From the NCBI GenBank assembly GCA_964550845.1, contig CAZKAD010000001.1, forward strand, positions 21,342-85,341: a DNA stretch of 64,000 nucleotides. Direction: 5' to 3'. The stretch is from an uncultured Gammaproteobacteria bacterium (lineage in GTDB: Bacteria; Patescibacteriota; Patescibacteriia; Magasanikbacterales; UBA922). The notes beneath the pieces were generated by a model, which worked only from the letters and a program-made list of their open reading frames with translations, ran no database searches and was not told the DNA's origin. This document shows, piece after piece, positions 8,769-63,821 of this stretch. The first letter of the stretch is position 1; every line of letters starts with the position of its first letter. The position numbers and the translations under genes were made by a program.

Positions 8769-8770
8769 TG

Positions 8771-10518: not shown

Positions 10519-10555
10519 TTAGATATTGAATATTGGATATTGAATATAAATTTCG

Positions 10556-10563: not shown

Positions 10564-10627
10564 TTTCTTAATCAATCAATAATCAAACTTATTAGGAGTT
10601 TGATTATCTTTTCAAAAAGTAAAGGTT

Positions 10628-11158: not shown

Positions 11159-11160
11159 TT

Positions 11161-11190
11161 CACAAAGTCACCTTCTGAGGTGACTTTGTG
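11161..11190 (+). terminator. gene-end hairpin (12-bp stem)
   Basis: cacaaagtcacc-ttctga-ggtgactttgtg. Confidence 0.6.
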
Positions 11191-11265
11191 AAACTCTTTT
11201 TTGAGAAAAATGAGTTTTTTCTTTATCGAGAAGGGAAAATTTGCTCATCAACTTTTCAATCAGAA

Positions 11266-11715: not shown

Positions 11716-11731
11716 ATCTATCAATTTGAAG

Positions 11732-11739
11732 AAAATTGA
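11732..11739 (+). promoter_or_regulatory. AAAATTGA promoter-like octamer
   Basis: 91 nt upstream of ATG 11830. Confidence 0.55.
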
Positions 11740-11829
11740 TCTGCAAAAATTAACTTAATATAAAAACCTACCCGAAGGGATCTCGTTTTTCGGTTAAAGA
11801 GTTTTTCACTATTTGTACAGAGTTAAAGA

Positions 11830-12678
11830 ATGGTTCCCGCTCCCTTCAAAAGGTACACCATTACTTTTACTGTGGCAACCAACTGGACTATTAATCATGT
11901 TCTTTTCTTCTGGAAACATGACTTTCCAAAAATACAAGACATGTCAAATGTTCCTCTTGGTACAATTCTTTCATTGAAATACAAAGATGAAAATGGCCAT
12001 GTTCATCATCGAGGTCATGGAAAGAGCAATGATAAATGTTTTTCTAATACTACTTCTGTGAATGTTTTTGTTGGAAAAGTTATCAATGTTAAACTTCCAT
12101 CATTCGGTAAGATTCAAATTACCGGATGTCTCGAGGAGAGTCAAGCATATAAGGGAGTTCATGCAATTTGGAAAGCAATTCAAGCAATCGAAGAAAAGAA
12201 TCCTGGTTTTTGTAAATTACCTCCAGATGAACCACCAAAAATTATTTTCAATCCCGTGATGAACAATGTGAGTGTAAATATTGGTTTTGAAGTGAATCGA
12301 CAAAAGTTACAGACATTCTTGTATAGATGCAAAGAAATGGATTTCATTCTTCCGACCAAAGATGAGAGATATGCAGGAACAAAAGTAGAGACAAAAATTC
12401 AAGACATTTCTCATATTCCGCTGGTTAAACAAAGATTTCTCCAAGGAAAATGGTATTCTTCAAATGCGACCATGAATGACTTTCTAGCTCTCTTGAATGC
12501 AAAAAGTCGAAAAGAAGAGAGTCGAAAGACTCATCAACATGTCATTCTTATTTTTCATTCAGGTAAATTGATTTATATTGCTCCTCGATTTGAACTAATG
12601 CCGAAATTCTATGACTTTTTCCTCAAGCTCCTTCATGAGCATCGAAATGAAATTGAAGAAACTTGTCAAGCGCATTAA
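11830..12678 (+). CDS. hypothetical protein, possible TATA-box-binding-protein-like fold
   Basis: Two TBP-repeat-like segments, SFGKIQITGCLEESQAYKGV and LIFHSGKLIYIAPR. Fold assignment is weak. Confidence 0.6.
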   Translation: MVPAPFKRYTITFTVATNWTINHVLFFWKHDFPKIQDMSNVPLGTILSLKYKDENGHVHHRGHGKSNDKCFSNTTSVNVFVGKVINVKLPSFGKIQITGCLEESQAYKGVHAIWKAIQAIEEKNPGFCKLPPDEPPKIIFNPVMNNVSVNIGFEVNRQKLQTFLYRCKEMDFILPTKDERYAGTKVETKIQDISHIPLVKQRFLQGKWYSSNATMNDFLALLNAKSRKEESRKTHQHVILIFHSGKLIYIAPRFELMPKFYDFFLKLLHEHRNEIEETCQAH

Positions 12679-12754
12679 ACTTTAAACCTTAAACTTTAAA
12701 TTCTCCTCAAGATTGATTAAATGTAAAGGATTCTTCTCCTCAAAAGGAAAAGAA

Positions 12755-12850
12755 TTAAACGTCTCTTCAAGACTGGTTAAACGTCTCTTCAAGACTGGTT
12801 AAACGTCTCTTCAAGACTGGTTAAACGTCTCTTCAAGACTGGTTAAACAT
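12755..12850 (+). repeat. TTAAAC-hairpin repeat array (22-bp unit, 4.4 copies)
   Basis: ttaaacgtctcttcaagactgg with TTAAAC at 12755, 12777, 12799, 12821, 12843. Three more TTAAAC at 12675..12700. Confidence 0.95.
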
Positions 12851-13553
12851 TCCCATTCAATTGATTAAACGGAAATTCAATTTCAATCTTCAAGTTCAAT
12901 GTAAGATCAGAAAGATACCATGCTTCTCCTCGTCGATGAATATACGGAGTTTTGAATCTTGGTGTTTCAAATTGGTCGAGAAGATACATATCATGGAATG
13001 GCACTTTTTTCAGTTTAAATAGACTATAATCTTCATTTTGGATCATAAAGATAAATTCTTTGGTTCGTGGAAAGAACCACAAAACTGTCTCTTTGTACTT
13101 ATCAAAAAACTTCCGAGTTTCTTGATCGCAGAGCTTAAATTGAATTGCGCGCGGATTATTTTGAATCCAGTCGGCGACAGAATCGAAGTTTTCGAATTCT
13201 ATCTGAAAACTTTTCGATCCAAGAAATGTCCATCGATTATTCCTCTTTTGGAATGATGGTGCAGGACAATCTGGAAAATTACTACTTGAGATTTGTGCAC
13301 TATAGATTAAATTATCATCACTCGATTCTCGAAGTTTAAACAAAGCTTTATTTTCGGTTCTCTTTTGATCAATCATTAAAATTTGATGCTCATTTTTCGA
13401 CCAGTAAATCTTGAGTGGAGTATAATACCCCTCGACTTTACTCACTTTAAGTTCAATCATTTTAATCATTTCGGAAGGCTTAGCCATCGGGGATGGTTGA
13501 AAGTTGTTCAAATTCCAAATCGAATCAATAAAATTAATCAATTTCTTATTCAT
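12843..13553 (-). CDS. hypothetical protein
   Basis: Start taken at MNKKLINF (13553). The longer extension would overlap the divergent promoter and gene at 13598. Confidence 0.55.
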   Translation of the reverse strand: MNKKLINFIDSIWNLNNFQPSPMAKPSEMIKMIELKVSKVEGYYTPLKIYWSKNEHQILMIDQKRTENKALFKLRESSDDNLIYSAQISSSNFPDCPAPSFQKRNNRWTFLGSKSFQIEFENFDSVADWIQNNPRAIQFKLCDQETRKFFDKYKETVLWFFPRTKEFIFMIQNEDYSLFKLKKVPFHDMYLLDQFETPRFKTPYIHRRGEAWYLSDLTLNLKIEIEFPFNQLNGNV

Positions 13554-46082: not shown

Positions 46083-46448
46083 TTATTGCTTAGCTCCTTC
46101 TTCGAAACGCTTATTGAGTTCTTCGAAACGCTTATTGAGTTCTTCGAAACGCTCATTGAGTTCTTCGAAACGCTTATTGAGTTCTTCGAAACGTGTGTCC
46201 TTTGAATTTATTTGCAAACTTCCTTTGAATTTTGTTAAAGCATTTCGAAATGAGTCTGGATCATCTATATTGAACATATACGAAGTCTCCGAACAATTTG
46301 ACGAAATGGTACCTCGAAATAAATTCAAATGTACAATCACATTTCTGCTATGAATTGAAACAGTTTCACGATTTGGAGATATCCGGATAATTGGACTTTC
46401 CAATTTAAGTTCGTTGGCAACTATTTCTGCCATCTCTAAAGCAGACAT
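46083..46448 (-). CDS. hypothetical protein with C-terminal RFEELNK heptad repeats
   Basis: Paralogue of 46547..46891 (MAEIVANELKLESPII / MAEMIAKELKLANPII). About 4.6 x 21-bp repeat. Confidence 0.6.
   Translation of the reverse strand: MSALEMAEIVANELKLESPIIRISPNRETVSIHSRNVIVHLNLFRGTISSNCSETSYMFNIDDPDSFRNALTKFKGSLQINSKDTRFEELNKRFEELNERFEELNKRFEELNKRFEEGAKQ
46100..46196 (-). repeat. 21-bp coding tandem repeat, about 4.6 copies (RFEELNK)
   Basis: cttcgaaacgcttattgagtt at 46100, 46121, 46142, 46163, 46184. Confidence 0.9.
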
Positions 46449-46546: not shown

Positions 46547-46891
46547 TTATTGCTTGATTCCCTCAACTGGATTCTTATTGACTTCTTCGGGGCTTTTAAC
46601 TTCTGAATTCACTTTCAAACTCTCTTTAATCCCTAACAACGCGCCTTGCAACGAAGATGGACTATCGAACATGTACATGTTCGAAGTGTTCGATGAAATC
46701 GTGCCAAGAAATCGATCCAGTTCAATAATTACATTCCCACTTTGAATTGAGACACAATCCGAATTATTTGGATGTACCTGAATAATCGGGTTTGCCAATT
46801 TGAGTTCTTTGGCGATCATTTCTGCCATTTTCACGGTAGACATTTCGGATGTTTTTCGGGTGCTTTTTGAGTGCTTTTGAATATTTTCCAT
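46547..46891 (-). CDS. hypothetical protein, paralogue of 46083..46448
   Basis: Shared LGTISSNxS..YMF and LKL.xPII segments. Minus-strand AAAATTGA 17 nt upstream. Confidence 0.6.
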   Translation of the reverse strand: MENIQKHSKSTRKTSEMSTVKMAEMIAKELKLANPIIQVHPNNSDCVSIQSGNVIIELDRFLGTISSNTSNMYMFDSPSSLQGALLGIKESLKVNSEVKSPEEVNKNPVEGIKQ

Positions 46892-47116: not shown

Positions 47117-50100
47117 TTAACAGATCTTGTTTCGAATTCCTTTAACCAAGGGATCATTTGGACCGAAAATTCGGTGAATCACGTTTCCTTGACCAACTCT
47201 TCCGACTGTTTCGTAGTGATTATTGTCTCGATAAGAAACTAACACAATGCTTGGTCTTCCTTCGGTATAACTACAATCAACTGGAATTGGTTTTCCATCT
47301 TCATCAAGCAAATAGATATCATGGCGAATAAATTCAGACAAAATTTCAAGTACTTCGAGACCAACTTCATTGCCACTCGTTCCAAGATTATCAATGAAAT
47401 TTGCATACGCTTCTTGTTCGGCGAGCTCAAAGATTTTCTTCAAATCAAGCAAACCTCCAGCAGACAAATCTTTTCGAAGAGCTTGTAGTTGAAATGTATT
47501 TTCGAGTTCTTTTTTGTAAACTTCGATCATCTTTGATTGAAGAACTTTATCTTGTTCAAGACGAAGTAAATATTTTTCAAGCTGATATTGATTTCCCATC
47601 ATTGCAACCAAATTGGCTCGACGGCCAAGAAAACCTTCGTTTTTATTGGTCAAATAATAGTGAACAATTGAGTCAAAGCCTGGAACTTTTCTTCCAAATC
47701 CCATTCGTGCAATTCTTCCTTCTCCAACTTTCTTCCATTGGGCAATTGGAATGTTGACTGTTTTTCTCCAATTTTTGACGAACTCTTTCTTCTCATCGTC
47801 TTTCATTTTACGATAATCGATACTTAATGCTGTCTGTAAGGCATGGAAGAAATCATTTCCATCTACAAGAGTACCTGTACGAACCAATCCTTTCTCTTCA
47901 AGAACGATACTGTATACTTTATTCTTTCCAGGGTCAATTGGTTGAAGCGCAAGATCTTCTTGGATATTTACTCCACGAGCAAATCCGGTCAACGGATAGT
48001 AACTTTCTCGAACAAAGAGGAAAGATCGATACAGTCGAGCAAGTTGTTGTTCTTCAGGATCGAGCCATATCGGAGGTGAAAAGATCTCACTCTTTTCAAG
48101 TTTGAATCCGATTGTTTTCATTTTGTCGACGAAGTAATCCCAGTCAACAAGATATTCAATTTGCGTCTCAGCGACTGTCTGACTTCCTTTGTATTGATAT
48201 TCAAGTCCCTTGTTAAATAGAATATTTCCGGAAAATGGTTGATACAATCTCTTCAAAGTCACATTTCCAAGCTGGACAATCCCCTTTTCAAGTATTCGCC
48301 GAGTCGCTTGTCCATCAATGGTGGTTCCAAGGAAATATCCATTTTTCTCAACACTTTCATCAAGTGTTTGAAGAAGACCGTTGAGTGGATCTTCGTTTTC
48401 AAAGAAGAATGACAGCACAAAGAATGAAGTGGCAACTTGGACACGAGATCCGCGCAAAGCTTTCACAATTGTTTCAGTATCTTGCGCTCGAGCTTGAATA
48501 TCAATCAAATTTAGTCGTTGATTGCGAAATTCCATTTCGCTTGCTCTTTGTTTCAATTCGAGGAGAAACTCCGGATTTGGTTCAATTGCAATCAGTCTCG
48601 CTACATGAGCAGTGTAATATTTCATCAAATCTCCTCCTTTTCCAGAACCCAGATCAAGGATAGTTCTTTCGGGGCAGTACAGATTAATCAATTCTCGTTT
48701 AATCGTATTGCTAAACTTACGGAAAGCATCTCGATCTGAACTTTGTTTCAAGGCATTAATTAGTTCTTGTTCGGTGAGAGGATTTTGAATATCAATCCAA
48801 ACGTCTTTTGCAATGTCAACGTAATTTGGTTCAGTTTTATCTGGACGTGCCTTCACCAGTTCAAAAGTTCCGTTGTGCCAACGATATTCTCCAATCTTTG
48901 GAGGATAAAATTTGCTGCGAATGGTACCACGAAAGCCAGGAGGTGTAAAATGAATCAAACCATTTTTACCACCAACCATCAAATTGTACATTTCACCATA
49001 GACTTTCACTGCTGCAAAATCAATGGTCAATTCGTGGACTGGTTTCCACTTATAAGTATGGAAATTTAAATAAGGTTCTGCAATTGGAGTGAGAATTAAA
49101 CCATCATAATTAGGATTATTTCGAATCTCGTTCAACAATTGTTCAGTGTCTTCGGCAATTTGATAAGTCATGAAAAATTGTTTCTTAATGATATCAACAT
49201 CACGCAGACTATTGACCAATTGCTCAATGTATTCAAATCTCTTATCAAGAGTCAATTGACGGACATCTCGATCATGAAGGCAAATCATATCAAAGATATG
49301 AACTTGATTCTTAAAGAATTCACAATCAAAGATTGTTCCATCAAGATCTTCACGAATCTTACTTCGAAAGAGTTCGATGTTACCTTTCATTCCAGCCAGA
49401 AAAAGTTTTTGATCTGTAATAATCCCAATCATCCGCACTCCATTTAATTTTTTAGTCACTGCGTAGGCAGAGAGGTTTAAATTCCATCGTTTCAAATTGA
49501 TCGGTTGAGGAAGACCACGTTTGAACAAAACTGATTCGTCGAACTTTGCGCCATCTTGTTGTTTGAAAAAATTATTAAAGAAGCGAAGTGCGACTTTTGT
49601 ATCAACATTAATCTTCTCTTTGAGAGCATCAAAAGAAGCCCAGATCAACTTAAGTGGCATAAAGAAGGTTTTCAAATCAATATTCTTTGAAAAATATTCA
49701 ACTTCAACTTCATAACTCTCTTGAGTTGAAGTCATCTCAATTGAATGTGAAGCATCCTTAGCAAAGAAAGTAACTCGAGATTTTTCACGAGTCATTTGAA
49801 TTGATCCTGGTTCATCTTGAGTAGGTATTTCCTCTGAAGTGACTAAGTCGATCTTAATAGTATATTCTCCTTGAACTCGATCAAACAAAGTGAATCTCGA
49901 CTTCATCATTTTCCTCACTTTGGTTATTGGTACGTTATCAGTTAAAACTTCTTCAATTCGGATATTATTATCTGACAATTGTGCAAATGTCTTGGAAAAT
50001 TTCCCCTGTTGATAGAGATCAGAATCAGTAATAATTTTGAGTAGCCACATCCATCTCTTTTGATCAGCATTCGGAAATCCAGCCTGAGCTTTACCTTGAT

Positions 50101-50239
50101 AAATAAACCCAAGTCGAGCTTCAATCTCGGTATTTGGTTTACCGAGACTTTCTTTCAACACCGATTGAATTCGATTACAAACATCCGGTTGGATGCCAAT
50201 CTTCGAATTCCCGAGGATCTCTGCAGCACATTGATCCAT
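47117..50239 (-). CDS. mRNA capping enzyme (TTM triphosphatase, guanylyltransferase, cap N7-methyltransferase) with C-terminal OTU-like domain
   Basis: EIEARLG and EVEVEY (TTM), KKLNGVR (KxDG-like), ILDLGSGKGGDL (SAM site). C-terminus LVDGNDFFHAL ... GLEVLEILSEFIRHDIYLL ... NNHYETV. Confidence 0.92.
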   Translation of the reverse strand: MDQCAAEILGNSKIGIQPDVCNRIQSVLKESLGKPNTEIEARLGFIYQGKAQAGFPNADQKRWMWLLKIITDSDLYQQGKFSKTFAQLSDNNIRIEEVLTDNVPITKVRKMMKSRFTLFDRVQGEYTIKIDLVTSEEIPTQDEPGSIQMTREKSRVTFFAKDASHSIEMTSTQESYEVEVEYFSKNIDLKTFFMPLKLIWASFDALKEKINVDTKVALRFFNNFFKQQDGAKFDESVLFKRGLPQPINLKRWNLNLSAYAVTKKLNGVRMIGIITDQKLFLAGMKGNIELFRSKIREDLDGTIFDCEFFKNQVHIFDMICLHDRDVRQLTLDKRFEYIEQLVNSLRDVDIIKKQFFMTYQIAEDTEQLLNEIRNNPNYDGLILTPIAEPYLNFHTYKWKPVHELTIDFAAVKVYGEMYNLMVGGKNGLIHFTPPGFRGTIRSKFYPPKIGEYRWHNGTFELVKARPDKTEPNYVDIAKDVWIDIQNPLTEQELINALKQSSDRDAFRKFSNTIKRELINLYCPERTILDLGSGKGGDLMKYYTAHVARLIAIEPNPEFLLELKQRASEMEFRNQRLNLIDIQARAQDTETIVKALRGSRVQVATSFFVLSFFFENEDPLNGLLQTLDESVEKNGYFLGTTIDGQATRRILEKGIVQLGNVTLKRLYQPFSGNILFNKGLEYQYKGSQTVAETQIEYLVDWDYFVDKMKTIGFKLEKSEIFSPPIWLDPEEQQLARLYRSFLFVRESYYPLTGFARGVNIQEDLALQPIDPGKNKVYSIVLEEKGLVRTGTLVDGNDFFHALQTALSIDYRKMKDDEKKEFVKNWRKTVNIPIAQWKKVGEGRIARMGFGRKVPGFDSIVHYYLTNKNEGFLGRRANLVAMMGNQYQLEKYLLRLEQDKVLQSKMIEVYKKELENTFQLQALRKDLSAGGLLDLKKIFELAEQEAYANFIDNLGTSGNEVGLEVLEILSEFIRHDIYLLDEDGKPIPVDCSYTEGRPSIVLVSYRDNNHYETVGRVGQGNVIHRIFGPNDPLVKGIRNKIC

Positions 50240-50271
50240 TGCTTTTATTTCGAGAAAGAAAAAGGAAGATT

Positions 50272-50279
50272 TCAATTTT
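50272..50279 (-). promoter_or_regulatory. AAAATTGA promoter-like octamer (minus strand)
   Basis: 33 nt upstream of the capping-enzyme ATG 50239. Confidence 0.65.
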
Positions 50280-50354: not shown

Positions 50355-50747
50355 TTAAAATAAAAGGGTTGGATTTTGTGGCTGTTGAGCAGGAACTTTA
50401 TCCATAAAAATTTTGATTAGTTTAATTAAGTCTGGATGCAATTTGGCTAAGTCAAAACTGACCATTTTTGGTTTGACAGTCAGTTGCAGAAAATCATTTA
50501 GTCCAAACAAATGACTATGAATTCGGATCAGCATATAAATATTATTTTGTATGTCTGGTCCAAGAGTCTTTTCTTTTGATCGAGTTTTAACATCTTCATA
50601 CAATTGTTCCATTTCTTTTTCATTTAATGGAGCTCGTTGAGCAATCAACGGGGCCAGATTTGCATAAAGAGGATATTGATTTGTGTATGGAGTAATCGAA
50701 GTAATCGAAGTACTTGTTACGGTTGTTTTGGAGTCGTTGACTGACAT
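50355..50747 (-). CDS. hypothetical protein
   Basis: 130-aa ORF. May be the 3' part of a longer gene (see findings). Confidence 0.5.
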   Translation of the reverse strand: MSVNDSKTTVTSTSITSITPYTNQYPLYANLAPLIAQRAPLNEKEMEQLYEDVKTRSKEKTLGPDIQNNIYMLIRIHSHLFGLNDFLQLTVKPKMVSFDLAKLHPDLIKLIKIFMDKVPAQQPQNPTLLF

Positions 50748-50887
50748 TGCGGTGAAATGGTGAGTTTTTCAAACTGAGCTGCAAGTACAACTTCTTGAGT
50801 AGCTGAATACGTAGAGGGAATAATTACTGAGTTTGGAATAGAAGGAAGAGATGTTGTTCCCGGATAAATCCGAATCGGTTGGCTCAT

Positions 50888-50895
50888 AAAATTGA
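50888..50895 (+). promoter_or_regulatory. AAAATTGA promoter-like octamer
   Basis: 66 nt upstream of the RNase H ATG 50961. Confidence 0.6.
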
Positions 50896-50960
50896 TTTTA
50901 CTTTCTGGATTGAGAGATCAAATCAATTTATTTGTTTATTTATTCAAGTGAAAAAAGGAG

Positions 50961-51533
50961 ATGAAATTCTATGCAGTTGCAGTCGGTCGTGTACCAGGGA
51001 TTTATACATCTTGGCCTGAAGCGCAAAAACAAATTCATGGCTATTCAGGAGCGAAATATAAGTCTTTTTCTGAGAAATCTCAAGCCGAGACCTATATGAA
51101 ACTTTTTGTTCATCGAGATGAAGAGAAAAAAGAAGATCGCCACATTATCTACACCGATGGTAGCGCGGTAAATGGAACTGCTGGAGCTGCTGCTGTTTCG
51201 CTGGAGAAGAAATTGGTTTACTACGGAAGACCATCCGGTGAACAGACGAATAATCGAGGAGAACTTTCCGGCATTCGTCTTGCTCTTTGTTTTGAAGGTT
51301 CTTTATTGATCTATTCTGACTCAGAATATGCAATTGGTGTAATCACTGGAAGTCTTGCTGCAAAGAAGAATCTTGATTTAATCGAGATTATTCGAAAGGA
51401 AATGGCCGGTCGAGATATCGTTTTTCGCAAAGTGCTTGCTCATTCTGGAGTTGAAGGGAATGAATTGGCCGATCATTACGCGGATAAAGGACGATCTTTA
51501 TCTGAAGGTACAATTGTACAAGAAAAACTTTAA
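50961..51533 (+). CDS. RNase H1 with N-terminal hybrid-binding domain
   Basis: FYAVAVGRVPGIYTSWPEAQKQIHGYSGAKYKSF. Catalytic IYTDGS, NNRGELSGI, IYSDSEY, GNELADHYA. Confidence 0.9.
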   Translation: MKFYAVAVGRVPGIYTSWPEAQKQIHGYSGAKYKSFSEKSQAETYMKLFVHRDEEKKEDRHIIYTDGSAVNGTAGAAAVSLEKKLVYYGRPSGEQTNNRGELSGIRLALCFEGSLLIYSDSEYAIGVITGSLAAKKNLDLIEIIRKEMAGRDIVFRKVLAHSGVEGNELADHYADKGRSLSEGTIVQEKL

Positions 51534-51573
51534 CCAACCCTTTAGACGTTCAAACGTCTCTCGGACTGGTTAA
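51529..51573. repeat. nested palindrome of the TTAAAC family between convergent genes
   Basis: ttaaccaaccc...agacgttcaaacgtct...ggactggttaa. Confidence 0.7.
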
Positions 51574-52055
51574 ATACGATTATCTTTTCGAAGATCTTGT
51601 TCGAACTTTTCGAGTTGTCGGCAAAAATATAAATTCGGAGAAGCAACTTCGCGCTTAGATTTAATTGATTTTAATATCTCCTGAAATGGTTTCTTTTCCG
51701 ACCACATTAAATAACCTGCTAATATTGATGCAGATCGAGAAATTCCTTGTGCACAATGAATTAATACCGCTTCTCCATTTTTAAGATGTTGATCAATAAT
51801 TGGAATAATTTTTGGAAGAATAGTTAGAATGTCTTGTTGATGATCATCATTCATACTCAGAAAGTAATGAGTAAGATTTTGATGGCCAAAAAGTTTTGAT
51901 TCTACTTCAATGGCACAATTAACTACAACTGTAATGTTCAACTGTTGCAAGAGCCAAATTGAATTTGCCATCTTGGCATTACCAAGGAAAAGATTTTTTC
52001 TTATTTCTGCACCAGCAAATCTTGCCGGTTGAGCAAATACTGCGCGGTTGAGCAT
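51570..52055 (-). CDS. dual-specificity protein phosphatase
   Basis: VLIHCAQGISRSASILAGYLM. Start at MLNRAVF (52055), because the 52166 extension reads through repeat 52113..52152. Confidence 0.88.
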   Translation of the reverse strand: MLNRAVFAQPARFAGAEIRKNLFLGNAKMANSIWLLQQLNITVVVNCAIEVESKLFGHQNLTHYFLSMNDDHQQDILTILPKIIPIIDQHLKNGEAVLIHCAQGISRSASILAGYLMWSEKKPFQEILKSIKSKREVASPNLYFCRQLEKFEQDLRKDNRI

Positions 52056-52112
52056 ATTTTTCTTTCTTCGAGAAGAAAGAAAATGTTTTAAATATGACAA
52101 CGAGTTTTTAAG

Positions 52113-52152
52113 GACGTTTAACCACTTCAGAGAGTCCTTCGGGACGTTTAAA
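52113..52152 (-). repeat. TTAAAC-hairpin repeat, reverse orientation (2 copies)
   Basis: gacgtttaac...gtccttcgggacgtttaaa. The second copy contains the stop of gene 52148..53866. Confidence 0.8.
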
Positions 52153-53866
52153 GAAATGAGGCGCAATGTTGCAACTGATCGGCGTTTATTTTTCTTCCAA
52201 CCGCTGCATTTGGAATAGTTTGGAGGTCCATTGGAGGTGCGCTTGGAATTTGAAGTGCTCGAGGGATAAGCTGATCGACTACAGGAGCTGATGTCGGAGT
52301 TGGAGCCATGCTCAGTTGTGGTACACCCGATTGTGATGGAGCCATACTCAACCGACCAGCTTGAGCTGAAGTCATCAAAGGAAAGCCTGGGACACTTCTT
52401 CCGGAACCTTGTGAGACTGACATTGCCCGAACTGAAGATTTGTTCAAACCAAAAGTGGCCTGAAGAGCGGGAGAAACTGAGCTTCTTGCTTTTCTTCGAA
52501 TCGATCGAACCAATGAATCCTTTTTCTTCTTTGAGATATTTTCAATCCCCATTTGCTGAGCAATTTCTTTCAAGTCAGCCACCTTCAATTCTCGAAGCTC
52601 AGTCGTTGAAGGAATCTCCATTGATCGATCGTCAACAATTTTTGGTTGATCGACTACTCCAGCTACACCAATATCCTTGTTGAGCAAAATTCGTCTCAAA
52701 GAGCGAGGAGAATATCTTGAATATCCCCTGACACCTTCAGCCTTGGCGAGCTCTCGAAGGTCACCCACGCTCAGATCTTGAACCACAGATTCGTAATCTC
52801 GGACGTTGTATTTACGTGGTGAAATAGCTCTTACTGATTTCTGTTTGATCTTTTCAATTAAATCAATTTTCTTCAAATCCTTCTCATCGATAACGTTGAG
52901 ATCTTTTGCAATTTTGTGTAGGGCTTTTGCACTCTTCAAACTCAAGTTAACTTCTCCACTTTCATTTCCAATCAACAAAGGTCGTCGAGGGCTCTTCAAT
53001 CCGTAAGGAACATCCGCCTCGGGCAATGATTTGGCGATATCAAGAAACATCTCACGCATGATGGCCAATGCTTCTTTGCGAGATGATCCACTTGGAACCT
53101 TGACACCAATCTTTTTTCCGAAACTCACCATTTCTTTGACCTTCATATCGAGAACATCTTGCCAAGCAATTCCGTCAAGAGACAGATCTTCAACTCTTGG
53201 AGCAACTTTTGATCCTCGCAATTGAGGCAAACTGTTCGGGTCGACTTTGATTCGTTGAGCGAAAGAATTCAAAGCTGCTTGAGAACCATAGACCGGACGA
53301 GAATTGATTTCAACGCGAGCTGAGTCTTTAGGCAAACCTCGAGGAATGTCACAGTCTTGTTTATCAAGATTGCAAATGAGTTCATCACGACATCCGACAA
53401 AGTCACCTTCCGAACTCACATTCAAATTACATTTTTCACTGTCGAGGAAAGCCAACAGAGCACTTCTCAACAATTTCAGATCTCTATCACTGTCACGAAA
53501 TTGGGAATATCCAGGCATATTCACTTTCTTCGCAATTTCCTTCAGGCCTGAGATATAAGGTTCTTCGATAATTTTTTGTCTCATCACTGCACGTCGACCT
53601 TGTTTGGTTCGGCTTTCTTTTTGTTCTGCGCGTCCAGAAACAAACGATTTGGCTGCGAGAAGAGTTTCACGCATCACTTCTCTTTTTTGAGATGGAGTTC
53701 GATATTTCCGATTCAATTCAGCCAAGCAGCTTTCATCACAACTTTCGATTGCGAGGAGAAATTGTTTCCAAATTTGATCTACTTCCTCTGATTCGAGGTA
53801 AAGAATATCGTTCGGGGTTGCGACTTTAGCAAATCTTGATTCAGGATCTAAGCGAATGTTCGACAT
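52148..53866 (-). CDS. protein with about five HeH/SAP (Rho_N-like) motifs and Pro/Ala/Ser-rich tail
   Basis: LKEIAKKVNMPGYSQF, MVSFGKKIGVKVPSGSSRKEALAIM, LHKIAKDLNVIDEKDLKKIDLIEKI, VGDLRELAKAEGVRGYSRYSPRSLRRIL, VADLKEIAQQMGIENISKKKKDSLVRSI. Confidence 0.7.
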   Translation of the reverse strand: MSNIRLDPESRFAKVATPNDILYLESEEVDQIWKQFLLAIESCDESCLAELNRKYRTPSQKREVMRETLLAAKSFVSGRAEQKESRTKQGRRAVMRQKIIEEPYISGLKEIAKKVNMPGYSQFRDSDRDLKLLRSALLAFLDSEKCNLNVSSEGDFVGCRDELICNLDKQDCDIPRGLPKDSARVEINSRPVYGSQAALNSFAQRIKVDPNSLPQLRGSKVAPRVEDLSLDGIAWQDVLDMKVKEMVSFGKKIGVKVPSGSSRKEALAIMREMFLDIAKSLPEADVPYGLKSPRRPLLIGNESGEVNLSLKSAKALHKIAKDLNVIDEKDLKKIDLIEKIKQKSVRAISPRKYNVRDYESVVQDLSVGDLRELAKAEGVRGYSRYSPRSLRRILLNKDIGVAGVVDQPKIVDDRSMEIPSTTELRELKVADLKEIAQQMGIENISKKKKDSLVRSIRRKARSSVSPALQATFGLNKSSVRAMSVSQGSGRSVPGFPLMTSAQAGRLSMAPSQSGVPQLSMAPTPTSAPVVDQLIPRALQIPSAPPMDLQTIPNAAVGRKINADQLQHCASFL

Positions 53867-53934
53867 CGTCTTTTGGGTAGCGATTTAATTTCTAGAAATA
53901 ATTTTTGAAGATTTGAATTTTTCTTCGGGGGAGA

Positions 53935-53998
53935 TTAAACGTCCCGAAGGACTGATTAAACGTCCAAAGGACTGATTAAACGTCCCGAAGGACTGATT
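53935..53998 (+). repeat. TTAAAC-hairpin repeat array (20-21 bp unit, 3 copies)
   Basis: ttaaacgtcccgaaggactga x3, immediately upstream of AAAATTGA 54001 and the RPB1 start. Confidence 0.95.
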
Positions 53999-54000
53999 AA

Positions 54001-54008
54001 AAAATTGA
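54001..54008 (+). promoter_or_regulatory. AAAATTGA promoter-like octamer
   Basis: 43 nt upstream of the RPB1 ATG 54051. Confidence 0.65.
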
Positions 54009-54050
54009 TGAAACTTTTCAATCTCTCTTTGAAAAAGATATAGATATCCA

Positions 54051-56987
54051 ATGCAGATTGGAGAGGTGGTTGTACGTCTCCTATCACCAGAAGAAATATG
54101 TGCCTTTTCTGTTTGTGAGGTAAAGTATGAGAAGATTCGAAAGAACGATGATAATACTGAAACTCCAGCTGATCCAAGACTTGGAACTCTTGATGAAACA
54201 CCATGCAAAACATGTGGATGTGAATTTCGAGACTGTCCAGGGCACTTTGGTCATATTGTACTTGCAACGCCTATCATTCATCCTCTTGATCGATTTCCGA
54301 TTATTACGGCCGAACTTCTTTCTTGTTTTTGTAGCAATTGTTGTAGATTGCTAGTAACCCGAGAGATGTTAATGATTGAGCGAATAGGTAAATTGCAGAA
54401 AAATAAACGTCTCGCTAAAATCGTAGCTCTTTGTACGAAAATGGGTATTTGTTATCACTGTAATCAAAAAACATTGAAATATAAGCTTGATACCAGCTCG
54501 GGAAGAGCCAAAATCTATTCTCAAATAAAAACGATCACCGGAAACGATGATACCCCAGTTGAGATTCCCGTTGAACAAATTTACAACATTTTCTCCAGAG
54601 TCTTAGATGATGATCTTAAATTGCTTGGAATCAATCCAAAACAATTTCATCCCAAGAATTTGATTATACGTATCTTACCTGTATTGCCATTGAAAACAAT
54701 GCCTTATATTGTTACAGATAATGAAAAGAGAGAAGATGATTTAATGACTTTCTATCGAAATATCCTTAAGGTTAATTCAAGAATTCTTTCTCATTCATAT
54801 GTTGATCTTGACAAAGAGATTAGCAGTCTTGTCTTTTACATCAGTAATTTTATGGATAATTCAAAAAAGAAAGTTCGCCAACCGAACGGAAGAGCACATA
54901 AATCACTTCGTGAACTTCTTTCAAGTAAAAAAGGTCTACCCCGTATGTGCCTCCTTGGTAAAAGAGTGCACTATTCAAGTCGTACTGTAATTGGAGGTGA
55001 TCCAACTCTTGCGACTGACGAAATCTTTATTCCAAATTGCATTGCTTCAACTGTTTCTGTTCCAGAAACAGTCACTTCGTTCTCAAAAACCAAGCTTGAA
55101 GCACTGTTGAATAAGGGAGAGATTAATTTTATCTCTCGAATCGAGAATGGAACGAAGCGTGTACTCAATCCAAGAATTGCAACCAAAACACAAGGAACAA
55201 TCTTACTTCCGGGTGACAGAGTCTTTCGAAATGAGGTTGAAGTTAAACTTCAACGGAGCGGAGATTTACGCCAAGGAGATCGAATTGTCCGAAAAGTGCT
55301 TAAAAATGGTCAAACAATTGAAGAAACTCTACACGCCGAAGAACCAAAGAAAAGATCTTTCCTTCTTCATGATGGAGATATTGCCCATCGATGGTTACAG
55401 AATGGAGACTGGGTGATTGTCAATCGACAGCCTTCTCTTCATGCTCAATCAATGCTTGGACTCAAAGTAAAACGAACCAATCAGAAACCTGGGAAATATA
55501 CATTTGAAGAACGATCAATTCGTCTTCCTCCAGATGCAATTACTCCTTTGAATGCAGATTTTGATGGTGATGAAAGTAATGTTCACAATCCACAAAATTT
55601 AATGGCAAAATCAGAATATGCAGTTTTAATTAACATTGCTAACAACATTATTGCGAATCAATCTTCAAGACCTTTGATTGGATTGGTGCAAGATGCTCTG
55701 ATTGGATGTTGGAAAATGACACAAGGATGGGTCCCAATTCCAGTCAGCTTGTTTCAAGATATGATTGTCACTGCAAATATCAGTCTTGAGAGAATTGATC
55801 AAGTCCGGCAAGTATATCAAAGGATTTTCGGCGATGGAGATAAATATCTCTATACTGGAAGAGGTATATTGTCGACTGCATTGCCAATTACTTTCAATTA
55901 TAGCTCAAAGAGCAAATCTTATAACTCAGAATCTCTTCAAATTGAAAGAGGTGTAATAATTTCTGGAGCTTATGGAAAAAGCTCGGTTGGAAATCGAAAC
56001 GGAGCAATCCATCATTTTCTCCGAGAAAAAGAAGCGATTCAATTTCTGACTAAAACTCATACTCTTGCTTACGCGTGGGTAGTTCAAAATGCAATCGGTG
56101 TTGGATTATCTGATTGTATTCCTCCGATTGTAGATAACTTCGGAATGATTCCACAAGCGCGCGAACATATTGAAGCAAGTTATCTGAATGCTGTCATTTC
56201 AGAAGAAATTATTTCAGGACGAATCGCGGAACTCTCAGTTTGTCGCGTCTTGAATAATGCTCGTAATGTTGGTCACAAGATTGCCAGTGAATTGATCGGA
56301 AATTCAAATCGAATCAAGCAAATGATTGATGCCGGGTCAAAAGGATCAATGAACAATTTGACTCAAATCATGGTAGCACTTGGACAAAACACCGTGTACA
56401 ACAGACGAATTCCAATGACAAATATTGATGGACTTCGTACATTGCCACATTTTTCAGCCAATAAAGATAATCTGGCTAAAAAATATGAAGAAAGAGGTTT
56501 TATTGATACTTCGTTCTTCAATGGATTGAATCCAATCCAATTCTTTAATCACGCCCAAACCGGCCGTGAAGGTATTGTTAATACCGGTGTCACTACTCGA
56601 GGTTTCGGATACATTCAGAGAAAACTCACTGCATTGTTGAAGAATATCACTATTGCTCAAGATTTTACTGTTCGAGATTGTGGAACAAATCAAATTGTTC
56701 AATTCATTTATGGAGAATTTGGTTTTGCTCCTTCGAAACAAAATCGAGATAAAGGTCAACTTTATGTTGATATCACGACAGCAATTGATAAAATTACAAT
56801 CGAATATGAACTTAAGCATCAGATTGAAGAAATTTCACTCTCAGAACAACAGAAGAGAGATGCTCAAGAAGAAATTGAAGCTGATCGAATCTCGATTGCA
56901 TCAGGTGCAAGTGATAATGATGGTTCTGCCTCAGAAGATTCTATCTCCAACGCAAGTGGAGATGAAAATGATTTTGATGACTTTTAA
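54051..56987 (+). CDS. RPB1: DNA-directed RNA polymerase largest subunit, N-terminal portion only (A'-like)
   Basis: LSPEEICAFSV, zinc sites CKTCGCEFRDCPGHFGH, NRQPSLH, NADFDGDE, bridge helix GREGIVNTGVTTRGFGYIQRKL, QFIYGEFG. Then an acidic non-homologous tail and stop. No trigger-loop region. Confidence 0.93.
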   Translation: MQIGEVVVRLLSPEEICAFSVCEVKYEKIRKNDDNTETPADPRLGTLDETPCKTCGCEFRDCPGHFGHIVLATPIIHPLDRFPIITAELLSCFCSNCCRLLVTREMLMIERIGKLQKNKRLAKIVALCTKMGICYHCNQKTLKYKLDTSSGRAKIYSQIKTITGNDDTPVEIPVEQIYNIFSRVLDDDLKLLGINPKQFHPKNLIIRILPVLPLKTMPYIVTDNEKREDDLMTFYRNILKVNSRILSHSYVDLDKEISSLVFYISNFMDNSKKKVRQPNGRAHKSLRELLSSKKGLPRMCLLGKRVHYSSRTVIGGDPTLATDEIFIPNCIASTVSVPETVTSFSKTKLEALLNKGEINFISRIENGTKRVLNPRIATKTQGTILLPGDRVFRNEVEVKLQRSGDLRQGDRIVRKVLKNGQTIEETLHAEEPKKRSFLLHDGDIAHRWLQNGDWVIVNRQPSLHAQSMLGLKVKRTNQKPGKYTFEERSIRLPPDAITPLNADFDGDESNVHNPQNLMAKSEYAVLINIANNIIANQSSRPLIGLVQDALIGCWKMTQGWVPIPVSLFQDMIVTANISLERIDQVRQVYQRIFGDGDKYLYTGRGILSTALPITFNYSSKSKSYNSESLQIERGVIISGAYGKSSVGNRNGAIHHFLREKEAIQFLTKTHTLAYAWVVQNAIGVGLSDCIPPIVDNFGMIPQAREHIEASYLNAVISEEIISGRIAELSVCRVLNNARNVGHKIASELIGNSNRIKQMIDAGSKGSMNNLTQIMVALGQNTVYNRRIPMTNIDGLRTLPHFSANKDNLAKKYEERGFIDTSFFNGLNPIQFFNHAQTGREGIVNTGVTTRGFGYIQRKLTALLKNITIAQDFTVRDCGTNQIVQFIYGEFGFAPSKQNRDKGQLYVDITTAIDKITIEYELKHQIEEISLSEQQKRDAQEEIEADRISIASGASDNDGSASEDSISNASGDENDFDDF

Positions 56988-59622: not shown

Positions 59623-62600
59623 TTATCCAAGAATTGCATTATAATACAACACATTATCTTGTTTCCAGACAAGGATGTTCGGCTTACCTTCAGAAAGCAG
59701 TTCAAGTTTATCAGGATTGATAAATACCATAATCACAATTGGCGCTTGGTCGTCCTTCCATTGTCGATAAATTGCAATCGCATTTTCATAAGAGTATGCT
59801 GGCTGACAGAGAAATTTACCCACATTTGTTTCAAGAAGATACACACCTCCGAGATATTTTGGAAAGTTAGACATCTTAATTTTTGATGACTCCGAATCGG
59901 ACCAGTCAAGTAGCTCGGAACCATCTGAAAAAAGAACCGCATTAACATCAACGTTTGTTTTCAAAAAGTCCGATTTTTCAAGGAAAAAATTCTTAAAGAA
60001 GACTTGGTGTCTGTAATTAATCACATTCGACATATTTCGAAGCATGCACAAATAGAGATGGTAGCGAATACCAGGAATTAAGTTTTCAGAATTCAAGATA
60101 AGTTTTCCATCTTTTAGCCAAGAAGATTTCTCAAACTTTCTCTGGAGTGGAGGGTAAGTAAAAGGAAGTTTCTCAGGGATGATAATCTTCTCGGCGAAAA
60201 ATCGATCAAGAGCTTTTTCATCATATGACAACTTCTGTTCAAAACAAAACTTGCTAAAAGTGTATAAAGCGTGTTCAGAGAGAAGTCTTGCTGTTCTCTT
60301 TGCTTGAATAGTTGACATATAATTACTTCGTTGATCAATCTTAATTGGAAAGTAATAAATATAACCTTCCTTTGTTTCGATGTAAATATAGCCATTTTCT
60401 TCGCGAAGAATTTTCCATCCTTTTTCCGAGATATATTCTCGGATCAATTCAATTTCATTATTTGAATATGAAGTTAATCTGGGAACATGGAGAATAGGCA
60501 TTGGCCCGCAGAGCATGTTAATTTTTTTATTCTTATATTGAATCTGCACTCCTCTCATCTTTCCAAAATCATCAATGAACTGGCCAATAATTCCAGATGG
60601 AAGTTGATCTTCACTTGAAGGCAATTTGTAGGGATTATCAATCAAATGGAAAGAGACAATCTTTCGTTGGGCATTTTCGAGAATTGCTGTAATTTCCTTT
60701 GAAAATAAAGCCATCTGGGAAGATTTATCTCCAGCAACAATCAATTCGCATTGGGGATATTCGGCCACATCAGATTCAGTGCCTGAATGTTCAAGAATTA
60801 CCACAGCAGGTTTGGTTTTTGGAAATGATGTATAGAAGTGTTCGTAATAAGGTAGAACAAGCTTAGCTTCGTTTCCTTCACGAGTAAAGATAAAAATCGA
60901 ACAATCGAACAATTCTTCGGCCGAACGGAGATATTTTCTTGGATCAAGATAAGTTTTCGAATCAATCTCTTGTTGTAATTCTGGAATAGTCTGTCGAAAA
61001 TTTGACTGACGATCAAACAATAAAATTTGATCAGTTAACATTGATCGAGAAAAATTCTTTTGTGTCGCCTTTGCCACAGCATGGAAAAAGACATGATGAG
61101 AACGTGTTACTCCTTTACGGAAAAACGATATCTCAACTGGAATAGTCAGCTTGAAGAAATTTGCAATTTCATTCGGTAGATATCCAAGCTCATTTTCAAG
61201 TAAAATTTTCGGTGTCTTCAAAATGTGTGTAAATACTTTCTCATCTTCACGAGTGATATTTTGATAGTATGCAATCATATTCTTTTTTCCAATCTGAGAA
61301 GTTTTGTAACAACAAGGTAAATAAGGAAAATCATTCGAGTTGGCAAGATTACTCTTTTTCAACCCTGGATAGCCTTCTTCACAAACGAACCAATTTTGAG
61401 GCCCTTCTTCTTTTGACTTTGGAAATAAGATTGCTTCTCTATACGTTGGATGTCCGACAATATAGCTGCCTTGATATGGCTCAGGTGGTAAATCTTTAAG
61501 TAGAATAGGTGGATGTTGACAGCTACGAGGATATCCAGATTGGAAAATTGAAGGTAATAAATCTTGTAGACGATTTCCACCAACTTTAACAGTATCAAGT
61601 TCCTTTTTGAATTCGAATGATTCTGGAAGATATTTCTGATAAAATGCAACCATCCCTGGCTCTTCTTGATTGTAGATAGTAAACATTTTACCAATAAATC
61701 TCATCAGATCTTCTGCGATTTTTTGATTTGGCGCATGATTAACTCTTACCTTAACATAAATCGAATTGACTGGAAAATTGAGCTGATCTTTTTGGAAATC
61801 TTTCGCATCTGAAATACCCTCAATCATACTGACGGTAATTTTCTGAGGTAAATTTAAAGGATGGTAGAAAAAACTCAGTCCAGTACGGAATCTTCCAAGT
61901 CTTGCCGATTCATCTGAATAACACATACTCGACAAAAGAGGATTGTTCATAATCAAATCACGGAACAAGACTGAAGAAAATCTTTGTGATGGAACATAGA
62001 ATACAGAGTTGAGACTTTTCTCTTTGATTTGTTTAAAGTCGGGAGGAGTTAAATTGAAACATTCAAAAATTCGCTTGATCAAGAATTGGCTATTTGATTG
62101 AGCTTCAATTGGAGTCTCTAAAGAGATTTTGTAAACTCCATCCTCAATGTTAATAATACCTTCTGAATAATGTTTATCGTAATCATTTCCACTTTCTGTG
62201 TGACGTATGAAAAATCTTAACATATCAGGTAAACTCCCAGTCCATTCTTCCGGAATATTTTTTAGACTTTGATGAGCCTTATGGAAATTTTGAATATTCA
62301 AGTAGGGGATAAAATTGGATACTTTACAGAGATCAAAAAGTTCCATCAGATCATAGTCTGTCGAAAATGGAACTTCAACAGTAATTTTAGTGATTGCGAA
62401 TCGAGTGGTGATGACTGATTTCATTTGATTGAAATCATCAAACTTTGCTTCTAATATTGACTGTTCTTGAAGAAAAGAAGTAATTTCATTCTTAATTGGT
62501 TTTCCTTCACGGAGAAATTCTTCAATCGAATAATTTCCTAGCAAGTCAGCGTATACAATATTAATTACATCTTCAAAATCTCTTTCAAATCCTCCTTTGA

Positions 62601-62892
62601 GTGAAATCAGTCGGAGCCATTCACGAAAAATTTCTTCTCTTGAATAACCAAGCTGAACCCGTAATGAACTTGGAAGTGTATCATAAAATGCGAACTTTGA
62701 TGTTTCAACTCCTTGAAGAATTGATTGATAAAAGTCGACTGCATTAATATCGGTTTTCTCGTCAAGTTCCAGCCCAGATGGAAATAAGAGTAGTTTTGGA
62801 TGAGTCTTGAGTCGAAGGGCAATTCGAGCAAGAATCATTTCCTTGGTATCATCTGCTCGAAGCTGAAATGGTTGACCATTCAAAAGGACCAT
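59623..62892 (-). CDS. large hypothetical protein (about 1089 aa)
   Basis: Uninterrupted ORF. Start at MVLLNGQP (62892), downstream of hairpin 62939..62954. No motif recognised. Confidence 0.8.
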   Translation of the reverse strand: MVLLNGQPFQLRADDTKEMILARIALRLKTHPKLLLFPSGLELDEKTDINAVDFYQSILQGVETSKFAFYDTLPSSLRVQLGYSREEIFREWLRLISLKGGFERDFEDVINIVYADLLGNYSIEEFLREGKPIKNEITSFLQEQSILEAKFDDFNQMKSVITTRFAITKITVEVPFSTDYDLMELFDLCKVSNFIPYLNIQNFHKAHQSLKNIPEEWTGSLPDMLRFFIRHTESGNDYDKHYSEGIINIEDGVYKISLETPIEAQSNSQFLIKRIFECFNLTPPDFKQIKEKSLNSVFYVPSQRFSSVLFRDLIMNNPLLSSMCYSDESARLGRFRTGLSFFYHPLNLPQKITVSMIEGISDAKDFQKDQLNFPVNSIYVKVRVNHAPNQKIAEDLMRFIGKMFTIYNQEEPGMVAFYQKYLPESFEFKKELDTVKVGGNRLQDLLPSIFQSGYPRSCQHPPILLKDLPPEPYQGSYIVGHPTYREAILFPKSKEEGPQNWFVCEEGYPGLKKSNLANSNDFPYLPCCYKTSQIGKKNMIAYYQNITREDEKVFTHILKTPKILLENELGYLPNEIANFFKLTIPVEISFFRKGVTRSHHVFFHAVAKATQKNFSRSMLTDQILLFDRQSNFRQTIPELQQEIDSKTYLDPRKYLRSAEELFDCSIFIFTREGNEAKLVLPYYEHFYTSFPKTKPAVVILEHSGTESDVAEYPQCELIVAGDKSSQMALFSKEITAILENAQRKIVSFHLIDNPYKLPSSEDQLPSGIIGQFIDDFGKMRGVQIQYKNKKINMLCGPMPILHVPRLTSYSNNEIELIREYISEKGWKILREENGYIYIETKEGYIYYFPIKIDQRSNYMSTIQAKRTARLLSEHALYTFSKFCFEQKLSYDEKALDRFFAEKIIIPEKLPFTYPPLQRKFEKSSWLKDGKLILNSENLIPGIRYHLYLCMLRNMSNVINYRHQVFFKNFFLEKSDFLKTNVDVNAVLFSDGSELLDWSDSESSKIKMSNFPKYLGGVYLLETNVGKFLCQPAYSYENAIAIYRQWKDDQAPIVIMVFINPDKLELLSEGKPNILVWKQDNVLYYNAILG

Positions 62893-62975
62893 TTGACTTT
62901 TTGTGGAAGGAAAAAAGAGAAAAAGATAAATCAATTTCATTCTTCGAGAAGAATCAAAAAGTGGAATTATTTCGC

Positions 62976-63821
62976 TCAAACCAATTCTGGTTGTGAAAAA
63001 GACCAAATTAAACCGAGCAATCTTGGATCATATAGATCAGTTAACAAAAAATTGTACCACGGCGAAGCTGGTTTCAAACCATAAAAAATAAGAATTAAGA
63101 AAGTCTGGGAAAGCTCATACACGCCGTAATTCCGAATTGGTATCAACAAATTTGGCGCTGGATTTTTTCTATGAATTAAAAAGTAGAATAGATGACGTAA
63201 AGTTTTATATCTTCTTTCATATCGTTTACACTTTAGACAAGAATAATTCCATTGTATGAGTGTATATATAACGGTTTTAACATTATACTTTGTAGATGAA
63301 TTAAAAAAGTTAAATAATTGGCAATATCCATTAATATGATAAAAATTAACTTTACATTGATCAAGTGGGATTCGATTAATAACACAATGTACCTGGAAAT
63401 TTCCCTCGGCTTGAGTAAAATGATTTATTGGAACTTGATCCAAGACCTGTAATCGATGATAGATTTTTCGAGGTGTATTCAAATTGATTGTAAATTTGTG
63501 ATGGTTTGCGATAAGTTGCAATTTTTTTGCAATCTCCCGTTCAAGTTGAATAAGTTTTCGAGACGGAGCAGTCGGTAATCGAATATATATGCTACATACT
63601 TTTGGTTTGACATTGCTAATAAAAGTATTAAACGGAGAAGATGGTACAAAACCTTCATAATCATAAAAAATATTTATTACAAGTGGCATATAGGGATCAA
63701 ATTTTCTTTCATCAATTTGAGGGACAAAAAGATTCCATTTCGAAATTAATTCATCATCGTCGTTCATAACGAATATATTTCTATCTCTTCGATTAAATGA
63801 GAGATCATTTTTATTGCTCAA
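62976..63821 (-). CDS. LYDPR-box family protein, type IV
   Basis: C-terminus PWYNFLLTDLYDPRLLGLIWSF. N-terminus unrelated to types I-III. Confidence 0.75.
   Translation of the reverse strand: MSNKNDLSFNRRDRNIFVMNDDDELISKWNLFVPQIDERKFDPYMPLVINIFYDYEGFVPSSPFNTFISNVKPKVCSIYIRLPTAPSRKLIQLEREIAKKLQLIANHHKFTINLNTPRKIYHRLQVLDQVPINHFTQAEGNFQVHCVINRIPLDQCKVNFYHINGYCQLFNFFNSSTKYNVKTVIYTLIQWNYSCLKCKRYERRYKTLRHLFYFLIHRKNPAPNLLIPIRNYGVYELSQTFLILIFYGLKPASPWYNFLLTDLYDPRLLGLIWSFSQPELV

Follow-up and report, generated by a model that had tools for sequence, protein, structure and literature searches.

Why does a predicted giant-virus mRNA capping enzyme carry, at its C-terminus, a domain resembling OTU cysteine proteases in which the catalytic Cys is replaced by Asp? 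The question is raised by one gene on a 64,000-nucleotide stretch of contig CAZKAD010000001.1 (positions 21,342 to 85,341; hereafter the window, meaning this whole stretch), which, judged by its gene content, is that of a nucleocytoplasmic large DNA virus. The gene (47117..50239, minus strand, stop codon at 47117-47119 in the list of open reading frames, ORFs) encodes 1040 amino acids. Its product is predicted to be a trifunctional giant-virus mRNA capping enzyme, with TTM-type RNA triphosphatase, guanylyltransferase (GTase) and cap N7-methyltransferase (MTase) modules, and the OTU-fold domain, delimited by the profiles of relatives and a structural model, follows them (residues ~770-1040; 47120..47932, minus). 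Residues are numbered from the ATG at 50239 (1040-residue numbering) unless the 1052-residue numbering from a TTG at 50275 is stated. Here we show that the domain is homologous to OTU domains, that Asp796 stands at its nucleophile position and that it evolves under purifying selection. We put a probability of about 70% on the domain being a lineage-specific pseudo-deubiquitinase (pseudo-OTU), which the capping enzyme retains as a binding or scaffold module with no proteolytic function.

By its own sequence the domain is remote from known proteins. The last 277 residues gave no Pfam match, none even at E<=10, and none among PDB sequences, and a single-sequence AlphaFold2 (AF2) prediction of the C-terminus was uninformative (predicted local distance difference test, pLDDT, 37). 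A word-indexed homologue search was insensitive for this domain (1 match by sequence, 2 by profile), and an exhaustive HMMER/phmmer search with the 277 residues was used instead, which returned 427 proteins at E<=1e-3, 123 of them at E<=1e-10, out of 1.84 billion representatives. Relatives with the same fusion to a capping enzyme were matched strongly, namely P0004 (E 1.5e-39), which carries DGDCFFHA, P0025 (1.1e-38), P0026 (2.1e-35) and P0008 (6.4e-34). When 29 domain sequences were aligned, 23 members matched the Pfam OTU family PF02338 (best E 4.7e-7, some above the 23.3-bit cut-off) and 7 matched Otubain. The family profile matched yeast OTU1 (PDB 3by4, E 0.004), human OTUD2 (4boq) and a bacterial OTU (6w9s), thereby bearing out, by way of relatives, the OTU origin that an initial annotation had read from three motifs. 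These motifs and the Asp codon were found exactly where that annotation had placed them. The first, TLVDGNDFFHAL (residues 790-801, or 802-813 in 1052-residue numbering; 47837..47872, minus), forms the Cys-loop and the start of the catalytic helix and aligns with DG[SN]CFFHA of the relatives; in the profile alignment to yeast OTU1, DGsCfFHAi of the family corresponds to DNSCLFHAI and HYEsiG to HYDSL. The second, GLEVLEILSEFIRHDIYLL (residues 960-978, or 972-990 in 1052-residue numbering; 47306..47362, minus), had been labelled a variable-loop region. Its position held, but the label is loose, the segment being a conserved helix and first core strand (122-130 of 154 relatives keep D974, I975 and Y976) whose counterpart in the alignment is the conserved helix-strand element in yeast OTU1 (WGGAIEIGIISDALAVAIYVVD; OTU1 segment IEIGIISDALAVAIYVVD). 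The third, the His-loop IVLVSYRDNNHYETV (1010-1024 in 1052-residue numbering; 47204..47248, minus), keeps His1008 (47216-47218) and Glu1010 (47210-47212), and H1008-Y-E1010 aligns with H-Y-D of yeast OTU1.

An alignment-based AF2 model of the domain was confident (pLDDT 92.8, predicted template modelling score 0.85) and has the OTU alpha/beta fold, with the catalytic helix against a central sheet. The Foldseek comparison that the initial annotation had proposed as a check gave mostly OTUs among the PDB matches of this model; the Foldseek statistics are weaker than the profile evidence because a helical lobe is inserted. The lobe (all-helical, residues ~832-958; 47366..47746, minus) comes after the catalytic helix and before the central sheet, and nowhere else in the domain is conservation lower. 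Asp796 and His1008 are 212 residues apart, and in the model the stretch from the catalytic helix to the DIYLL strand is a run of helices, in line with the insertion after the Cys-loop that had been read from the sequence. The alternative that the C-terminus merely extends the methyltransferase fold was ruled out, since the Pfam MTase match stops at residue 718 and the confident alignment-based model has an OTU fold. Alignment with the C-termini of other giant-virus capping enzymes likewise gave a homologous domain, mostly with Cys, and no part of a methyltransferase. By profile and model, the C-terminal ~270 residues form a genuine OTU fold, nearest to the Otu1/OTUD2 type.

The catalytic columns were counted over an alignment of 157 domain sequences. 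At the nucleophile column, occupied here by Asp796 (codon GAT; 47852..47854, minus), Cys is found in 130 sequences, Ser in 20, Asp in 2, Asn in 2, Phe in 1 and a gap in 2, so that the reading of Asp at a Cys position was upheld. The His-loop His (His1008) is present in 145 of the 157, Glu two positions later (Glu1010) in 155 and His three residues after the nucleophile (His799) in 149. The two Asp sequences are the window protein and its 98% twin, P0002. Their closest other relative, P0003 (65% identity, syntenic context), has Ser, encoded by TCC, which differs from GAT at all three codon positions, and P0004-P0008, P0025 and P0026, with 37-38% identity over the full length, have Cys. The window protein and P0003 have three changes in common (L802Q, Y985I/L and K993E/D), each at a position that at least 70% of the family conserves. 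About 25 other family-conserved positions are kept, including R787, G789, G794, H799, Y809, R825, W835, D974, Y976, R995, S997, H1008, Y1009, E1010, G1013, R1023, F1025 and D1029. In a neighbour-joining tree of the domain (without support values) the window protein, the twin and P0003 group beside the Cys-bearing P0004-P0008. The shared changes suggest a single inactivation in the common ancestor of the window and P0003 lineages. A search for further members of this Asp/Ser clade found none in IMG/VR, and in JGI metagenomes only contigs of the Ser-bearing P0003 type. By the alignment, it is the Cys-to-Asp state alone that is specific to the window lineage.

Cys-less domains also occur away from capping enzymes, with Ser (20), Asn (2) or Phe (1) recurring among the stand-alone paralogues. 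In 10 of the 20 stand-alone Ser variants the His-loop His has been replaced as well (by Lys, Gln, Arg, Tyr, Asn or Thr), and several of these variants form a cluster in the tree; judged by these catalytic columns, pseudo-OTU paralogues seem to be common in giant viruses. Inteins are typically found in conserved active-site motifs of important genes. Three stand-alone members (P0106, P0110 and P0111) carry an intein, with Hint and LAGLIDADG homing endonuclease domains, that sits exactly at the step from the Ser of DGS to the catalytic Cys (junction ...TGTIAEGS / CFVEN...VVKN / CFFHS...), the OTU nucleophile thus being the intein +1 residue. The catalytic Cys matters in the OTU family, as the intein placed exactly before it in these three members shows.

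The replacement of Cys could in principle be an assembly or sequencing artefact, or the mark of a decaying remnant, and the absence of a Pfam or PDB sequence match for the window's own C-terminus, together with the poor single-sequence model, would agree with either, as with an extension of the methyltransferase fold. We looked at the members of the 90% cluster. DGNDFFHA was present in all seven that cover the site, in independent NCBI, ENA, JGI and Logan assemblies; Asp796 is therefore no assembly error and is fixed in the lineage. Selection was compared on the window protein and its 98% twin on the ENA contig L002. The C-terminal domain showed 23 synonymous and 6 non-synonymous differences, with a ratio of non-synonymous to synonymous rates (dN/dS) of 0.064 for this one pair, and the rest of the protein 36.5 and 10.5, with a dN/dS of 0.074. 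Identity to P0003 was 64-70% in the OTU core, as high as in the catalytic modules (GTase 72%, MTase 68%, TTM triphosphatase 62%), and identity to the Cys-bearing group was again comparable, at 33-52% in the OTU core and 44-49% in the GTase and MTase. The OTU domain is thus maintained under strong purifying selection and is not decaying. The selection, assembly and model results together refute the remnant, artefact and methyltransferase-extension readings, which we regard as extremely improbable.

A second, intact OTU paralogue was not found within the 64-kb window or in the flanks of related contigs, the rest of the genome lying outside this search. Self-processing, by which the OTU domain would cleave itself off the capping enzyme, was dropped as a candidate because the linker between MTase and OTU domain has no GG, hence no LxGG-like site, and is not conserved among relatives.

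The explanation that we prefer runs as follows. Giant viruses possess a large OTU family, stand-alone or fused to capping enzymes, in which most members have an Otu1/OTUD2-like Cys-His-Glu triad. The window lineage has lost the nucleophile (Asp here, Ser in the 65% sister), with three conserved positions changed at the same time, while strong purifying selection has preserved the fold together with His1008, Glu1010 and the majority of the other conserved residues. The domain would no longer be a thiol protease and would be retained for a non-catalytic job, most likely that of binding a partner, or of anchoring or positioning the capping enzyme in the transcription or packaging machinery of the virus. 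What we infer here is that protease activity has been lost, that one inactivation was ancestral to the Asp and Ser lineages and that the domain serves in binding or as a scaffold, with a putative ligand; the initial annotation had called the module probably non-proteolytic, a reasonable reading of the sequence. Several points weigh against our explanation. The OTU membership of the window domain is, by sequence, transitive, passing through relatives and not through a Pfam or PDB match of its own. Even the Cys-bearing family members are only predicted to be deubiquitinases or proteases. The dN/dS estimate comes from one close pair with 29 differences in the domain. Finally, His1008, Glu1010 and His799 are all kept beside Asp796, which could mean residual or altered chemistry; the usual pattern of a dead enzyme is that the His is lost too, as in half of the stand-alone Ser variants, and the kept His of the window protein departs from it.

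This last point leads to the possibility that the domain is still an enzyme, in which Asp796, His799, His1008 and Glu1010 would form a carboxylate/imidazole site acting by water activation, by an Asp nucleophile or through a catalytic metal, on an (iso)peptide or some other substrate. The three residues are kept in both Cys-less capping enzymes, the His being often lost in stand-alone Cys-less paralogues; the strong purifying selection on the domain would suit a working active site, and Ser of the sister lineage could in principle be a nucleophile. However, Glu1010 and His799 are conserved even where Cys and His are both lost (e.g. SQRE and FHKE variants), and their retention can therefore be structural. 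The three family-conserved residues that changed with the Cys are what relaxed constraint on the active site is expected to give, and the complete difference between the Ser (TCC) and Asp (GAT) codons indicates that the position tolerated different chemistries. Moreover, FAM105A, the one characterised OTU with Asp at the nucleophile, is inactive. On balance we consider an altered chemistry quite unlikely and retain the pseudo-OTU reading.

The initial annotation knew of no other capping enzyme with an OTU-like domain, which would have made the combination new. This did not hold. At least 25 cluster representatives of at least 880 residues, among the 157 sequences, carry a C-terminal OTU domain, and all eight long fusion proteins that were scanned have capping-enzyme Pfam domains, some of them also a significant Pfam OTU match. 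The catalytic pattern is C/H/H/E in 19 of 25 long fusion representatives as against D/H/H/E in the window protein. TTM-GTase-OTU fusions without a methyltransferase, 750-840 residues long, were found as well (P0065, P0094 and P0143). In UniProt, proteins of Marseillevirus LCMAC102 (A0A481YUA0, 1113 residues) and Pithovirus LCPAC404 (A0A481ZCB2, 1064 residues) bear the product name 'mRNA capping enzyme with OTU-like cysteine protease'. A Foldseek search of BFVD with our model matched A0A481YUA0 (E 2.8e-7, TMq 0.56) and, with probability 1.0, A0A481ZCB2 and the ~1000-residue 'mRNA 5'-phosphatase' of Pithovirus sibericum (W5SB45) and of Orpheovirus (A0A2I2L5W5); it also matched an 'mRNA capping enzyme' of LCMAC101. 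Among structural relatives that bear a name, the best come from Pithovirus-like and Marseillevirus-like metagenome-assembled genomes. The fusion is thus widespread in uncultivated giant viruses and has already entered the databases under a product name. The paper on the LCMAC102 and LCPAC404 genomes (PMC6401483) does not discuss it. In the literature searched, which left most subscription journals outside, we found no discussion of a capping enzyme/OTU fusion or of a VETF/OTU link.

If the domain binds a partner, is that partner ubiquitin? As a sub-case of the pseudo-OTU reading, the domain could be a reader of ubiquitin or ubiquitin-like proteins that has lost cleavage and kept the S1 surface, by which the capping enzyme would be targeted to, or shielded by, ubiquitinated proteins. 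The closest structural relatives, OTUD2 and OTU1, have been solved bound to ubiquitin, and the OTU core is well conserved. But the only Asp-type pseudo-OTU that has been studied, FAM105A, does not bind ubiquitin, and the genomic associations of the family are with transcription proteins rather than with genes of the ubiquitin system. These associations were examined at 26 IMG/VR loci with stand-alone homologues (L008-L033), where the OTU gene lies near 6000-7100. In 23 of the 26 the next gene, on the same strand as the OTU gene, encodes an orthologous SNF2-family helicase (1040-1400 residues, some with a C-terminal GNAT acetyltransferase), in 21 of these within 1.6 kb and often less than 80 bp away; two of the three loci without it stop at the contig edge. 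At three loci (L014-L016) a separate 425-residue GTase-like ORF (E 1e-16 to 1e-19 against a capping-enzyme profile) stands directly upstream of the OTU gene, and at L013 the GTase-like ORF and the OTU are fused, giving a split/fused pair. In BFVD, the OTU model further matched many 'VETF-like early transcription factor large subunit' proteins (probability 1.0, E 6e-6 to 1e-3) from pithoviruses, marseilleviruses, orpheovirus and iridoviruses. Leaving its role there aside, the viral OTU family is tied to the capping and early-transcription apparatus by fusions, by the SNF2 neighbour and by the VETF matches. We hold a ubiquitin reader to be unlikely, and the pseudo-OTU reading stands for us in its general form.

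The same associations allow a broader proposal, which we advance tentatively and as rather unlikely, that in giant viruses the OTU fold belongs, as a dedicated module, to the apparatus for early transcription and capping in the virion and is not primarily a host-directed deubiquitinase. Its essential job would then be non-proteolytic, namely to dock, assemble or package the capping enzyme with SNF2-type and VETF-type transcription factors. If true, it would explain the repeated fusion to capping enzymes and the SNF2 neighbour in 23 of 26 loci, the loss of the nucleophile under strong purifying selection, and an apparent degenerate recurrence of the fold in proteins like the VETF large subunit, possibly including one in the window itself. 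That ORF (59623..63006, minus, 1127 residues) has a DUF5757 match and adjoins an SNF2-like helicase (57747-59537). Within its residues ~620-760, the string ISFFRKGVTRSHHVFFHAVAKA ... LFDCSIFIFTREG ... AVVILEHSG..EYPQCELIVAG mimics the Cys-loop, core strand and His-loop of an OTU, with Val, Gln and Cys at the catalytic places. Alignment of the OTU family profile to this ORF by hhalign gave a probability of 2.4% and a score of 25.9, as against 16.6 +/- 2.8 for shuffles, of which 1 in 150 reached 25.9. Neither Pfam nor the PDB supported an OTU there, and IMG/VR held no relatives from which a profile could be built. The degenerate OTU-like motif in this ORF may serve as a weak lead.

Whichever partner is involved, the loss of the nucleophile under a constraint equal to that on the catalytic modules would make the window protein a natural separation-of-function mutant. 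Argued from this lineage, part at least of the value of the OTU module to the capping enzyme would be independent of proteolysis, and the capping enzymes of cytoplasmic giant viruses are core enzymes packaged in the virion. The Asp domain may also offer a clean construct with which to find a binding partner. With it, the small group of OTU pseudoenzymes gains a viral member. Taken alone this is modest, the fold assignment being ordinary, the fusion present in databases and the function inferred; the finding would gain interest should the OTU fold turn out to be a structural module of the transcription machinery in giant viruses.

The remaining parts of the gene are those of a capping enzyme, as had been annotated. 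An in-frame TTG at 50275 extends the ORF to 47117..50275 (1052 residues). The ATG at 50239 is the likely true start, and the TTG probably is not, because a 1040-residue gene was called on an independent Logan contig with an identical protein, and because homologues of 1040-1084 residues align over 100% of the length. The protein matched the capping families PF03291, PF01331 and PF03919 of Pfam. The TTM-type RNA triphosphatase module (residues ~1-230; 49550..50239, minus) was recognised from the motifs EIEARLG at 38 and YEVEVEY at 176, read directly; its bounds are approximate, the window sequence having no direct Pfam match there, and P0094, a relative of the same architecture, matches PF02940 (mRNA_triPase). 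The GTase module (residues ~231-494; 48758..49549, minus) matched mRNA_cap_enzyme at 245-398 (E 5e-6) and mRNA_cap_C at 444-494 (E 3.4e-6). Its motif I reads K-L-N-G (residues 263-267; 49439..49453, minus), the usual form being K-x-D-G, and the Asn, read in the alignment as a feature of the clade, is no error because it is common to P0003-P0009. The cap guanine-N7 MTase module (residues ~495-750; 47990..48757, minus) matched PF03291 (mRNA_G-N7_MeTrfase) at 495-718 with E 1.1e-16 and 61.4 bits, above the gathering cut-off, and has the S-adenosylmethionine motif DLGSGKGGD at 529. It is followed by a poorly conserved linker (residues 751-769; 47933..47989, minus) with 6-18% identity to the Cys-bearing relatives, as compared to 35-52% in the flanking domains.

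The window, with a GC content of ~36%, also encodes a family-B DNA polymerase, the RNA polymerase subunit Rpb1, protein kinases and a kinesin. Gene order is kept between 50355..56987 of the window and 2983..13129 of locus L003, the contig of the 65%-identical relative, running from Rpb1 through a Rho_N-domain protein, a dual-specificity phosphatase, RNase H and small ORFs to the capping enzyme. Rpb1 of the window has only 978 residues and its Pfam matches end within domain 5, and the gene may be split. Just downstream of the capping-enzyme gene lie two adjacent, paralogous small ORFs (46083..46448 and 46547..46891, minus), both with the motif MAE(I/M)(V/I)A(N/K)ELKL..PII, the first ending in a tandem RFEELN(K/E) repeat. 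The kinesin motor protein (16275..18800, minus, 841 residues) is interrupted by a Hint/homing-endonuclease-associated, intein-like segment at residues ~115-190, and its kinesin Pfam match is split into two stretches.

How does the window protein compare with known systems? Its nearest counterparts in layout are the LCMAC102, LCPAC404, P. sibericum and Orpheovirus proteins, likened to it by Foldseek match and product name, in which a capping enzyme is likewise followed by a C-terminal OTU-like domain. The metagenomic relatives P0004-P0008 align with it over 100% of the length at 37-38% identity. Whereas 19 of the 25 long fusion representatives read keep C/H/H/E, the window protein has Asp and the three accompanying changes. 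The Otu1/YOD1 (OTUD2)-type deubiquitinases (PDB 4boz, 4boq and 3by4) share 17-18% identity with the window domain, which differs from them in having Asp in place of Cys, a helical lobe of ~110-140 residues, and a fusion to a capping enzyme instead of UBX or zinc-finger domains. The Legionella Lot-class OTUs (Ceg23 6ks5, 7bu0, LotA 7uyg/7f9x) have a helical lobe too and superpose over more residues (156-166), but they are bacterial effectors with an intact catalytic Cys and no detectable sequence relation to the window domain, and the lobes need not be homologous. Human FAM105A/OTULINL (PDB 6drm), an OTU-class pseudo-deubiquitinase with the triad Asp139/His350/His352, is alike in having an OTU fold with the nucleophile replaced by Asp, that of the window being retained under selection (dN/dS 0.064). 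FAM105A differs in that its third residue is His, it is membrane-anchored and it belongs to the OTULIN branch; the two domains share 10% identity, a level that does not support common descent. FAM105A is thus an independent, convergent case of Cys loss and a precedent for the window domain. The capping enzyme of vaccinia virus, D1, has the order TTM-GTase-MTase, and its methyltransferase depends on D12, a catalytically dead protein with an inactive 2'-O-methyltransferase fold. D12 is a separate polypeptide of a different fold, and its likeness to the OTU module is by analogy alone: both would be pseudoenzyme modules in the service of a capping enzyme.

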